Virus record (IMG/VR): IMGVR_UViG_3300030012_004221
Span: 1 to 64,000 of that record
From: a virus
Length of the DNA: 64,000 nucleotides
Direction: 5' to 3' (one strand)
Shown here: positions 40,836-55,913 of the stretch, piece after piece
Layout: every line of letters starts with the position of its first letter
Position numbering within the stretch: the stretch's first letter is position 1
Program-made: the position numbers and the translations under genes
Notes under the pieces: model-generated
Told to the model about the DNA's origin: nothing
Database searches by the model: none
Seen by the model: only the letters and a program-made list of their open reading frames with translations

Positions 40836-40865
40836 AATATACGAACCCTCTCTCAGGAAACCAAA
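40836..40865 (-). promoter_or_regulatory. Early promoter TTTGG-N15-TTCGTATATTTAC
   Basis: Full consensus. Confidence 0.85.
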
Positions 40866-43402: not shown

Positions 43403-43810
43403 TCACGAGTTGTGGGCTCCGTTTATAATATCCGAAGAACTTAAATCACCATATCTCTTAACATATATTATTTCCTTGATGAATTCACTACCTATTATCT
43501 TTTTATCTTTATAGTCATCACCAATTAACATATATCTTGGGGAGTGTGCTTTGATTAGTTCAATTAATTCGTCATCCGTTGAAAAAGATACTACCGCATC
43601 TATATATTTAATAGCCTTTAAAAATTCTACTCTATGTTGTAAGTTATTTATAGGACGGTCATTTCCTTTCATCGACTGAATTCTATCATCCGTATCTATC
43701 CCCACTATTACCGGAAGACCCATTTGTCTTGCTCTTTGGAAGAGTTTGATATGCCCCATGTGGAGCACATCAAAACATCCATTTATCCAAACTATATTTT
43801 TATGAGGCAT
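43403..43810 (-). CDS. rfaE2: ADP-heptose synthase-like nucleotidyltransferase (HldE/RfaE domain II)
   Basis: NGCFDVLHMGH, GIDTD...KG..RPIN, GDDY, SSSDII. Confidence 0.85.
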   Translation of the reverse strand: MPHKNIVWINGCFDVLHMGHIKLFQRARQMGLPVIVGIDTDDRIQSMKGNDRPINNLQHRVEFLKAIKYIDAVVSFSTDDELIELIKAHSPRYMLIGDDYKDKKIIGSEFIKEIIYVKRYGDLSSSDIINGAHNS

Positions 43811-44615
43811 ACTCTAATGCAACATTAAATAATTCTTTATTTATTTTCATGTCTTGTTTGAAATTTTTAATTTCTCTAGCTTTTCTAAGCTTTCCACCTG
43901 CCATGTAATCAAAATCACCTTCAATGATTTTTTCTTGTACTACATTAAATACTGACCATAAATCATTTCCTTCATCTTCTTTTCTAACTGGTTTGATGAA
44001 TTCATCCATATTTATCTTAATTCTATTAAGTTCATCTTTTTTAAATCTAGTATTTAAAGCTTCTTTAGCAAATTCTAAAATTTGATTTTGCTCTAACTCT
44101 GTAGCTTTCATTTTATTCATTGATTCAACTGTTAATGGAAGATTTTCAACCATTTCTTTAATTTTAACTTGTAAATCATCAAATGAATAACCCATATGTC
44201 TCATTTTAACTGATTCAAATCTTGTATCGGCAATTACCAATCCATTAGAACAAACTAATCTGTATAAACCTGCTTCAAAATTAAAAGCATTTTTACCATC
44301 ATGAGAATTAGTCATTAATATTTGTGGAAATACTGTATCTCCATCCTGACCATTAATTACAACATCATCATTTCTAAATACCAATAAATGTTTTTGGAAT
44401 CCTTGTGTTGATTTTTTCCTTGCTTTTACCTCTTTTGCTTCAATTGGTTTCCAACCTAACAATTCCATATCATCAATTACTCTTTCTGTTGGAATATGAG
44501 TATAGTGTTTTGACACCTCACTACTTGGTGTTTTAGCAAATACTGCTGGTGCAAGTGATTTAATATTTTCTTTACTTAAATACTTAGCTGTTTGTAATGT
44601 TTCTTCGTTTAGCAT
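43800..44615 (-). CDS. DUF932/DUF945-family protein
   Basis: YTHIPT, KHLLVFR, NSHDG, GLYRLVCSNG, LWSVFNVVQE. Confidence 0.85.
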   Translation of the reverse strand: MLNEETLQTAKYLSKENIKSLAPAVFAKTPSSEVSKHYTHIPTERVIDDMELLGWKPIEAKEVKARKKSTQGFQKHLLVFRNDDVVINGQDGDTVFPQILMTNSHDGKNAFNFEAGLYRLVCSNGLVIADTRFESVKMRHMGYSFDDLQVKIKEMVENLPLTVESMNKMKATELEQNQILEFAKEALNTRFKKDELNRIKINMDEFIKPVRKEDEGNDLWSVFNVVQEKIIEGDFDYMAGGKLRKAREIKNFKQDMKINKELFNVALEYAS

Positions 44616-44646
44616 AACCTTGATTTTTAATTATTAATATGGGGTG

Positions 44647-44676
44647 AATATACGAACCCTCTCTCGGGGAACCAAA
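44647..44676 (-). promoter_or_regulatory. Early promoter TTTGG-N15-TTCGTATATT
   Basis: Consensus. Confidence 0.8.
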
Positions 44677-45001
44677 CATTTTACCGGAAGTCTTCAAAAG
44701 TTTTTAAAGAGCTGTTACAAATATAACAACCATTATAATCACATATATTATTGGGCTGAGGTCAATTTTTCTTTCCATGCTGATATATACATTACAACAT
44801 TCTATTATATGTGGTTTTAATATTAAGTAGTTATTACCAATATTATATCAATATATATTTTATCGATGCCAAAAATTTTGTTAAAAAAAGAATCCACATA
44901 TCACGATTTTTTAATCCCTTTACCCATATATATCCTTATATACAATCGATGCTTTAAGATCGTTTTCGAACCATAAAGACAGCTAAAACTTTTTTTGCGC
45001 A

Positions 45002-45340
45002 TATACACGCCCGATGGACGGCGGCTATCCGTGGGTAATTACGCGGGCGGTACGGCGTACCACGGCGAAAATATTATGTAAATATGTAAGTGATATAGCG
45101 GTGAGGATATATCATCCAGTAAGTACAACGGTAGGGATAGTTACGTACTAAGTACTAACCACCCCTACACAAGGTACTACATAAATAATAATTAAATAAT
45201 ACTAACTTACGTTACATTAAGGTAAGCGGTACGGCTAAGGTACTGATGTATGCCTCCCTACCGTCGTATTCTGCACCACCAATGCATGCTCATAACACAC
45301 AATCACCGTTATCCACCGCACCTCCGCGCGTGTTTACCAT
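45002..45340 (-). ncRNA. Candidate ~330-nt structured ncRNA (or structured origin/primer element)
   Basis: GC-rich ORF-free island directly downstream of the promoter at 45351-45380; nested helices whose G-U wobbles work only on the minus strand. Confidence 0.55.
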
Positions 45341-45347
45341 ATTTTAC

Positions 45348-45590
45348 CTAAATATACGAACAATTTTTTGCTTTTCCAAACCATTTTACACATGCCTTTT
45401 GTGAATAGTTGCGAACAACGCGTTTACTTTGCGGTTCGTAATATATACTCGTTCCTATAGGTAAGGGTTGGCTGCGCGGAATAAAGGGGTTAATGTGAGT
45501 GTGGTTTTGGTTTATATTCCCCCTCACTAGTTGTTCATATACTATTTGACTTCTTTTTGGTTGTGTCATACTTGGTATTTTGTTTGTCAT
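45348..45590 (-). CDS. Hypothetical protein (doubtful)
   Basis: 80 aa; 3' end runs through the promoter. Confidence 0.35.
   Translation of the reverse strand: MTNKIPSMTQPKRSQIVYEQLVRGNINQNHTHINPFIPRSQPLPIGTSIYYEPQSKRVVRNYSQKACVKWFGKAKNCSYI
45351..45380 (-). promoter_or_regulatory. Early promoter firing into non-coding DNA
   Basis: TTTGG-N15-TTCGTATATTTA with no ORF of 60 aa or more for ~670 nt downstream. Confidence 0.8.
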
Positions 45591-45717
45591 ACTTGGCTAA
45601 CCTCTTCTTAAACGCATTTAAGTTCTTTGATTTGTAATGATCCTCCACTACAGCCCAAATAACTGCTAACGTAAACACAACAGCAACACCCATAAAACCT
45701 AATAAACCTTCACTCAT
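45535..45717 (-). CDS. Small membrane protein
   Basis: N-terminal TM. Confidence 0.6.
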   Translation of the reverse strand: MSEGLLGFMGVAVVFTLAVIWAVVEDHYKSKNLNAFKKRLAKYDKQNTKYDTTKKKSNSI

Positions 45718-45733
45718 CGTTTAGTTATTTTAA

Positions 45734-45967
45734 TTAATATTCGTTTGAATCTTCCCCGTCGTCGCTGGAATTATCATCACCGTCACTCCATCTATCCCAA
45801 TCATTATTATCCTCATCTACCCATGGTTTGGTTTTAGGATCCTTTTCGGTTAATTTTTTCATATTAGCCTCCATTGTCATTTGTTTTAGAGCATTAATAT
45901 AATTAAACCTTTCAGTTACACTCATCATACGAAGCATATCTTTATCTAACTCACTATACTTTGGCAT
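45734..45967 (-). CDS. Hypothetical protein with acidic tail
   Basis: 77 aa. Confidence 0.6.
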   Translation of the reverse strand: MPKYSELDKDMLRMMSVTERFNYINALKQMTMEANMKKLTEKDPKTKPWVDEDNNDWDRWSDGDDNSSDDGEDSNEY

Positions 45968-45968
45968 A

Positions 45969-46295
45969 TTATAAATTTAATGATTTAACTTTTTTACTTA
46001 TTTCATTTGCAGTTTGAGCTGAACTCACAATAGCAATTACTTTAGCTACAGTGTCAGTTGACAACCACCCAGCAATCTGATCATCTTCTCTAATCTCAAT
46101 AAATCTTGAATCATTATCAAATACAGCAATTTCAGCACTTACTGAATCCCAGTAATCTTGTTTTTGAGGAGTACCATATGCATCTTTTTCTCTAACAGCA
46201 CAGTAATTACCTATACCCCACTGAACAGAAATACTAAATCCATTTTGGAAATCCATTTGAAATCCTTTATTCAAACAACTTGTAAACTTAGACAT
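45969..46295 (-). CDS. Conserved early phage protein (FQNGFSISVQW...GNYC...AEIAV...GW)
   Basis: Motif pattern; AAAGTTATG leader. Confidence 0.75.
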   Translation of the reverse strand: MSKFTSCLNKGFQMDFQNGFSISVQWGIGNYCAVREKDAYGTPQKQDYWDSVSAEIAVFDNDSRFIEIREDDQIAGWLSTDTVAKVIAIVSSAQTANEISKKVKSLNL

Positions 46296-46402
46296 AACTT
46301 TATTTTTTAACTATTAATAATCCTAATAATAATCCTAAATTAATACTAGCTAAAACTACTATCAACACTTCTAAAATACTCACTTCTATCATAACTTTTA
46401 TT

Positions 46403-46600
46403 TTAATAAAACATTCTATTCCAAGTCAACCAACTAGGTTCACTAACTAATTTACCATCTCTCTCAACAGTACATTTATTACCACATTTAGATACCTTAA
46501 TTAACTTATTATTCCCACAATAATCTTTACCAATTGATTCTCTTAATTCACCAATCTTATTAAATCCATCTAATTTATCTGTAATACTTAAATCTATCAT
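46403..46600 (-). CDS. Hypothetical early protein
   Basis: Follows promoter 46627; TAAAGGTTATG leader. Confidence 0.65.
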   Translation of the reverse strand: MIDLSITDKLDGFNKIGELRESIGKDYCGNNKLIKVSKCGNKCTVERDGKLVSEPSWLTWNRMFY

Positions 46601-46626: not shown

Positions 46627-46656
46627 AATATACGAACCCTTTCTCAGGTAGCCAAA
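46627..46656 (-). promoter_or_regulatory. Early promoter
   Basis: TTTGG-N15-TTCGTATATTTAC. Confidence 0.85.
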
Positions 46657-49438: not shown

Positions 49439-49468
49439 AATATACGAAAGGGATCTGGCTAAGCCAAA
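49439..49468 (-). promoter_or_regulatory. Early promoter embedded in a hairpin
   Basis: Consensus; inverted repeat 49449-49473. Confidence 0.85.
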
Positions 49469-55676: not shown

Positions 55677-55913
55677 TTATAACTTATATAGAGATCGATA
55701 CTTTTCTATAAAACTCTCTCCTACCGCAAGTTTTAATATTACTGCGCAATCTGGAACTCCTGGTAGTTTAGGAGCTGTGTTAATGTAGTCAACATTTGTA
55801 TTTCTCCATACTTTCATTTTAGTTTTAGCATTACTTCTATTTGAAGTTTTAAATACCATTACAACAGGATTATTACAATACCTTTGATTTTTTTTAATTA
55901 TAGCTTCATCCAT
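55677..55913 (-). CDS. Hypothetical protein
   Basis: 78 aa. Confidence 0.6.
   Translation of the reverse strand: MDEAIIKKNQRYCNNPVVMVFKTSNRSNAKTKMKVWRNTNVDYINTAPKLPGVPDCAVILKLAVGESFIEKYRSLYKL

Follow-up and report, generated by a model that had tools for sequence, protein, structure and literature searches.

The transcripts known as ColE1 RNA II and the origin transcripts of phages T4 and T7 are primer RNAs that start from a promoter beside the origin. The put RNA of phage HK022 is a cis-acting RNA that modifies the polymerase, and classical attenuators are built from four competing segments. GOLLD and ROOL are large, ornate, prophage-associated RNAs of 500-800 nt that display rich covariation and are represented in Rfam (PMC12286853).

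Here we investigated an interval (45002-45380) in a 64,000-nucleotide window, which spans the initial 64 kb of a viral genome of 158 kb (IMG/VR record IMGVR_UViG_3300030012_004221) and for which an earlier note, made from the letters alone, had proposed a promoter-driven, GC-rich non-coding RNA with mutually exclusive helices. The element is a new family within a known kind of phage intergenic structured elements, and no description of it was found in the literature. The best explanation, which we hold with even confidence, is that the interval represents the copy, in this phage, of a structured non-coding RNA element that is conserved and transcribed, with hairpins under selection at the RNA level and a core that is the working part. 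Consistent with the earlier statement that no tRNA or tmRNA signature was visible, ARAGORN detected neither in the window. Similarly, the Rfam scan that had been proposed as a check revealed no relevant family: the whole window had no match at the gathering score in Rfam 15 (pRNA, GOLLD, ROOL, group I and II introns, ribozymes, riboswitches, 6S, and RNase P included), and cmscan of 44600-45600 at E<10 returned two chance-level matches, both outside the element.

All genes of the genome are carried by the minus strand. The element is followed on its 3' side by a small hydrophobic ORF of 24 aa, a DUF932 gene (43800-44615), and a cytidylyltransferase gene, and on its 5' side lie small genes and the gene for an ATP-dependent DNA ligase. 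The function of the neighboring genes examined is mostly unassigned, and DNA ligase and a UV endonuclease were the only replication-type genes recognized among them. The features that delimit the element are as follows.

45351-45380, minus strand: promoter motif of the phage early type (TTTGG box, spacer, TTCGTATATT box) that points into the element; the motif has 13 copies, all on this strand

45385-45534, minus strand: second conserved non-coding block, "U," which combines a promoter-like box with inverted repeats (GTGAAC/GTTCAC) and is common to ∼60 loci in both architectures described below

44704-44778, minus strand: small hydrophobic ORF (24 aa) that separates the element from DUF932 and recurs in related loci L004, L010, L023, and L041

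Block U sits between a small membrane-protein gene and the promoter and contains a GGGG...CCCC hairpin, an invariant TTAACCCC stretch, and a promoter-like GAGTATATA box; its GTGAAC/GTTCAC inverted repeats are operator-like in appearance. The 24-aa small ORF is below the size of the ORF list used, and locus L002 has other sequence in its place. The DUF932 protein (minus strand) has a sub-threshold Pfam match to RNase HII (E 0.006, 16.9 bits compared with a cut-off of 25.8). Elsewhere in the genome, outside the window, an 8-kb stretch (G000:C1:134001-142000) has 37-48% GC, compared with 29% for the genome, and both of its strands carry long open frames; recent acquisition of a gene, or a gene of unusual composition, may account for it.

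The promoter was found to be a genuine repeated motif that points into the element, as had been claimed. The sequence TTCGTATAT occurs 13 times in the 158-kb genome, on the minus strand every time, and alignment of the 11 copies in the window revealed that they have in common a TTTGG box ∼15-16 nt upstream, a spacer, and then the TTCGTATATT box. Most of these 11 copies are followed ∼20-35 nt further on by a ribosome site and a start codon; the copy at 45351-45380 leads into a GC-rich stretch without a conserved ORF, and it is retained in the closest promoter-driven relatives. The consensus (TTTGG box, ∼15-16-nt spacer, TTCGTATATTTAC box) has 11 sites in the window, on the minus strand only and clustered at 40-62 kb (e.g. 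40837-40845, 44648-44656, 46628-46636, and 49440-49448), with AAAGGTTATG usually next, and we take it to resemble the -33/-7 promoter type of the Bacteroidota.

A different promoter-like motif, ATCGAT-TGTATATA, is rare: the genome has just three copies, each on the minus strand, and two of them lie just downstream of the element. It consists of ATCGAT, 1-4 nt, TATATA, and then a TATAAT-like box (44937-44950, 44850-44867, and 55685-55699). As a recurrent promoter class, neither TGTATATA nor ATATGTATA was supported in this genome. A search for intrinsic terminators (GC-rich hairpin followed by a U-run) returned no site in 43500-46500, nor was a discrete 3' end seen for the element.

We compared the reading frames behind the promoter in close relatives, in which the small ORFs amount to 16, 47, 10, and 2 codons and the frame changes at 88% identity. 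A plus-strand ORF of 45 aa and a minus-strand frame through the most conserved part of the element (the core) are both broken by -1/+1 indels, with the bases kept. Because the bases on either side of such compensating indels are retained even though the frame is displaced, the core is non-coding. Overall, the element is without a conserved reading frame on either strand. The earlier description of the downstream region as free of sizeable ORFs thus holds for the element, which has no conserved ORF, but not for the entire stretch, as its ∼735 nt hold the 24-aa ORF at 44704-44778.

A search with DUF932 yielded 46 related loci. By blastn, full-length similarity was confined to the closest of these loci, and a 3' block of ∼100 nt, reaching past the originally proposed interval to ∼44940, was common to 18 loci. 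A search pattern built from the invariant bases of the core has a single copy in this genome. The same pattern was detected in 34 stretches of viral contigs, of which 5 were chance matches in GC-rich contigs and 29 were true, and in at least 120 stretches of marine metagenomes, Tara samples included; 91 distinct versions were obtained after dropping duplicates and two chance matches. A blastn comparison of 1 kb with 50,697 phage records (isolates) gave no match, and the sole true match among GTDB genomes was a phage contig binned into a Flavobacteriales metagenome-assembled genome (MAG). Four other GTDB matches were rejected as chance, being in unrelated genomes. The binned contig (L205; NZWA01000013.1, 22,404 bases, the same as viral contig L003/L058) carries the element, and its place in a Flavobacteriales MAG is either a hint to the host or a binning artifact. 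The closest isolate by DUF932 is the Flavobacterium phage immuto (160 kb, 45% identity), which at the syntenic place has no intergenic gap and no core motif. The element family is specific to a clade of ∼160-kb marine phages that are related to 160-kb Flavobacterium phages and probably have hosts in the Flavobacteriales.

The family has two main architectures. In type A, which includes the window, the promoter lies 30-110 nt upstream and the element measures ∼330 nt; our type A alignment comprised 40 versions in 19 subgroups at 88% identity. In type B, which accounts for about half of the relatives, the element measures ∼230 nt and directly follows the stop codon of a gene for a 166-aa protein (alignment of 32 versions). 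In a few more distant groups, the core is kept in other contexts. The conserved features are as follows.

44997-45036, minus strand: near-invariant family core of ∼40 nt, from an alignment of 77 distinct versions; single copy

44925-44996, minus strand: conserved block outside the originally proposed interval, with an A-run, a conserved spacer, and the ATCGAT-TGTATATA promoter-like motif; alignable in both architectures

The best conservation was observed at the 3' end of the proposed interval and in ∼70 nt beyond it, and the block at 44925-44996 is 98.6% identical to that of L002. The core holds an imperfect inverted repeat, CACG ... CGTG, ∼two helical turns apart, resembles the two downstream ATCGAT-TATATA motifs, and is followed by the A-run. 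Because the most conserved bases never vary, they say nothing on whether RNA or DNA is the working form. We considered the explanation that the locus acts at the level of DNA, such that the core, the A-run, and the AT-rich stretch with ATCGAT-TATATA would make up a transcription-activated origin, with the G-rich RNA as an R-loop primer, or a control region that, for instance, serves the next promoter as an activator or operator site, and the hairpins would be secondary. The lack of covariation in the invariant bases speaks for this explanation, which also draws on the inverted repeat of the core and the likeness of the core to the downstream motifs, on the conservation that extends 70 nt beyond the structured part, and on the arrangement of a promoter directly upstream, a G-rich 5' RNA, and an AT-rich region after it. 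The operator-like inverted repeats close by and the weak RNase HII match of DUF932 (E 0.006, below threshold) could be read in the same way. However, no iteron array was seen, no replication gene besides those for DNA ligase and UV endonuclease was recognized among the neighbors examined, and TGTATATA is not a recurrent promoter box here. The GC skew of the whole genome displayed no turn at which to place an origin, a measure that is uninformative as an origin marker because every gene is on one strand. We regard a DNA-level element as unlikely, and further evidence that bears on it came from the hairpins of the type B relatives (see below).

We then analyzed the fold of the window copy, for which the earlier note had listed four nested helices (here H1-H4) and one competing local hairpin. 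The segments concerned are as follows.

45255-45268, minus strand: 5' strand of H3, with its partner at 45124-45137; 14 pairs in the window

45124-45143, minus strand: C-rich segment that pairs with 45255-45268 (H3) or with 45156-45167 (local hairpin)

45156-45175, minus strand: family-wide G-rich segment that forms a short hairpin (45171-45175/45161-45165) or the alternative hairpin (45156-45167/45132-45143)

45029-45065, minus strand: H4, a 3' hairpin that has 6 pairs in the window and encloses a mini-hairpin closed by GUAC

Each of the listed helices is present in the window at the positions given: 10 of 12 pairs form in H1, H2 consists of 10 pairs and a 2-nt bulge, H3 has 14 pairs including one G-U, H4 has 6 pairs, and the alternative local hairpin has 12 pairs including two G-U, so that the three G-U pairs reported earlier are those of H3 and the local hairpin. 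The GC island was likewise confirmed, with 40-42% GC in 200-nt windows compared with 23-33% in the flanks. The minus-strand fold had an energy of -126.6 kcal/mol (z -3.56), which none of 100 shuffles matched, and the plus-strand fold had a z of -2.08. Four segments of the window copy (45171-45175, 45156-45167, 45124-45143, and 45255-45268) allow two helices or, alternatively, a single one. The proposal of competing conformations therefore stands for the window copy; in the family at large, no more is left of it than a conserved potential of the H3 center to pair and a covariation signal in the local hairpin (see below).

The tetranucleotide GUAC is a further characteristic of the element, with 8 copies observed in the window element and 1.3 expected (six-fold), and it is enriched in all 91 homologs, which have a mean of 6.1 copies in their last 275 nt. 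These motifs mostly serve as self-complementary stem closers, and GUAC-closed hairpins upstream of the core, the H4 region included, recur across the family.

To provide evidence of selection on structure, we compared the distinct versions of each architecture. In type B, a hairpin designated Ha folds at the same place in ∼20 of the 22 different sequences compared, the stems of which include several that are unrelated in sequence; it has a mean z of -2.1, and its reverse complement is never more stable than the sense strand and often far less so (e.g. -7.8 kcal/mol for the sense strand versus -2.0). A second hairpin, Hb, which is homologous to the hairpin of the G-rich segment at 45156-45175 in the window, is a 14-bp stem with one bulge in which 93% of alignment cells pair, and in the core helix a local G-rich segment is paired with the core. 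Taken together, Hb and the core helix have 94.8% of cells in standard pairs, compared with 32-65% when the partner is slid, and they contain many G-U cells and few non-pairs. They also have 11 double-sided changes compared with 3.5 expected, and a covariation score of 0.150 versus 0.125; none of 500 shuffles was as high on either measure. The covariation signal of Hb is modest, with just three pairs that have a double-sided change. The strand asymmetry and the G-U pairs of the type B hairpins point to selection on the gene-sense single strand, i.e. on RNA. In the gene-linked relatives, Ha, Hb, and the core helix are kept by compensatory and G-U changes on one strand. These results also count against a DNA-level element, as the G-U pairs of Ha and Hb correspond to A-C mismatches in the opposite strand and in a cruciform. 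Pairing between the 3' end of the upstream type B gene and the linker had a mean z of -0.9, which is not significant.

The results with type A were different from those with type B: the check for covariation in relatives that the earlier note had suggested came out positive for Ha, Hb, and the core helix of type B but not for H1-H4. On the alignment of 40 type A homologs, 68% of the cells of H1-H4 pair, and 473-497 of 500 shuffles reached their covariation measures. The RNAalifold consensus of the whole type A element was almost nil (-5 kcal/mol), and averaged pair probabilities were 0.34 at most. Whole-element z-scores of ten diverse homologs were -3.5 (window), -2.4, -2.1, -2.0, -1.9, -1.1, -1.0, 0.0, +0.1, and +2.0. 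Two of the six positions of H4 are broken in most homologs. The nested ∼330-nt architecture is consequently not retained as proposed, as covariation in H1-H4 does not exceed that in shuffles and the 7-bp center of H3 alone persists. These 7 central pairs are standard in most of the 40 homologs, and an A-U/G-C exchange at one position marks the window's group. In an alignment-free duplex test, H3 had a z of -1.3 to -5.8 in 19 of 19 subgroups, and cognate partners did not pair better than non-cognate ones; the potential for H3 therefore reflects sequence conservation rather than covariation. The alternative local hairpin had a covariation of 0.183 versus 0.090, with 0 of 500 shuffles as high and 53% of cells pairing, on a MAFFT alignment, in which hairpins fall in shifting registers. 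A pairing of the core with the 5' arm instead of the local G-rich partner reached a z of -2.9 to -5.2 in some subgroups and of -0.5 in the window, and it was rejected.

The G-rich 5' arm of type A is where the two architectures meet.

45250-45345, minus strand: G-rich 5' arm, specific to type A; relatives have a coding gene that ends here

MAFFT aligned the G-rich arm of the window with the last codons of the type B 166-aa gene, and tblastn of type B C-termini against type A arms gave weak collinear matches in several independent subgroups (E 0.02-0.4 in a tiny database). The 166-aa gene belongs to no Pfam family and was not found in the window's genome. The arm and the middle of the element are 58-59% identical to those of L010, compared with 81% for DUF932. 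On these sequence comparisons, the 5' arm may derive, as a relic, from the 3' end of the lost 166-aa gene, and it may have been retained for pairing with C-rich segments that are found only in type A. In the 166-aa protein (L021:1360-1860 and further type B loci), a Cys close to the N terminus and a His in the C-terminal half are conserved and, judged from the residues, look like a papain-type pair.

Such a relic could also mean that the structures are a by-product, with the type B hairpins being ordinary 3'-end stabilizers or terminators of an early operon and the fold in the window being a decaying gene fragment that pairs by chance. We consider this improbable. Under this explanation, it would be expected that the type B hairpins begin right after the stop codon, that the arm and middle diverge faster than the neighboring genes, that the arm is weakly collinear with the C terminus of the 166-aa protein, that the fold z-scores are inconsistent, and that H1, H2, and H4 are not conserved, all of which was observed. 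However, a relic should drift to 29% GC and lose its promoter, whereas 19 subgroups keep the promoter, the G-rich arm, and the matching C-rich segments. Moreover, a family-wide invariant core of ∼40 nt far exceeds the needs of a stabilizing hairpin, and the U-run of a terminator is absent.

To obtain RNA-level information, we used contigs from four marine metatranscriptome runs from four studies. A 472-nt contig covers 44843-45281 at 94% identity with a depth of 244, compared with 67 for the DUF932 contig, and short contigs in several runs cover parts of 45278-45546. As these short contigs bridge the promoter, read-through from upstream is possible. The top summed depth in the RNA libraries falls on block U (45385-45534), the depths being per contig and summed over relatives, such that depth differences between bins and stretches without contigs are not interpretable. 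A contig that joins 44866 to 45014 is a single one with a 21-nt side. The non-uniform depth profile argues against plain carry-over of DNA and indicates presence in RNA libraries rather than a discrete RNA; the contigs give no strand and no ends, and they document presence and are not proof of transcription. The metatranscriptome check proposed earlier therefore succeeded in that contigs cover the element, but it does not extend to the strand, the ends, or a discrete transcript. Overall, the earlier suggestion of an undescribed phage non-coding RNA is upheld in that the element is conserved, non-coding, located behind a promoter, outside every Rfam family, and present in RNA-library contigs, but not with respect to the specific fold.

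We posit that, in the lineage of the window, the 166-aa gene and its neighbor were lost and that the early promoter would now drive the element directly. The transcript would begin with the G-rich arm, probably left from the 3' end of the lost gene, and the RNA would presumably be made early. The invariant core might then dock a conserved host or phage protein; alternatively, it could act in cis on the transcribing polymerase at the border of the early unit and the next promoters. The hairpins would hold the core in shape and protect the RNA, and in the window's lineage the competition between H3 and the local hairpin may modulate access. A protein-docking or polymerase-directed role at the end of the early transcription unit is favored because 19 diverged subgroups keep the promoter and the element with no gene between them. 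More tentatively, and somewhat short of even confidence, we propose an ocean-wide, undescribed structured-RNA family in Flavobacteriales-type phages, the core of which would work as an RNA module, for example by docking a host factor or the polymerase, by catalysis, or by countering defense. Such an RNA would be expressed at the tail of an early operon in some phages and from an RNA gene of its own in others, with the lineage of the window adding a conformational switch made from a recycled gene fragment.

The non-coding RNAs of Bacteroidota phages are almost unexplored, and such phages are abundant in the sea. The element offers a defined target, namely an invariant core of ∼40 nt together with covarying hairpins. 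As an RNA gene, it would point to an unknown phage-host interaction, and as an origin or control region, it would mark the regulatory hub of an uncultured phage clade. The element also illustrates how a non-coding transcript may retain or co-opt the tail of a lost gene as its 5' end.

Compared with the known systems, the element is like ColE1 RNA II and the T4 and T7 origin transcripts in that a dedicated promoter leads into a structured transcript several hundred nt in length, in which C-rich segments come after a G-rich one, with AT-rich sequence downstream. Unlike them, it is without iterons and without an adjacent RNase H or replication gene, and in half of the relatives it is the 3' tail of a protein gene. 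It is like put and the classical attenuators in that a structured RNA lies close to a promoter, where an early unit has its border, and in the window its four segments can form two helices or one. Unlike them, it has no terminator hairpin with a U-run and no Rfam match, the downstream genes have their own promoters, and the competing pairings are weakly conserved. Although it has no cmscan match to phi29 pRNA (RF00044, early promoter), belongs to another phage type, and bears no sign of a link to packaging, the element is, like that RNA, phage-encoded, promoter-driven, non-coding, single-copy, and a few hundred nt long. Finally, the element is smaller than GOLLD and ROOL (230-350 nt), has modest covariation, and has no cmscan match, but like them it is a phage-associated structured RNA that was found by comparative genomics.
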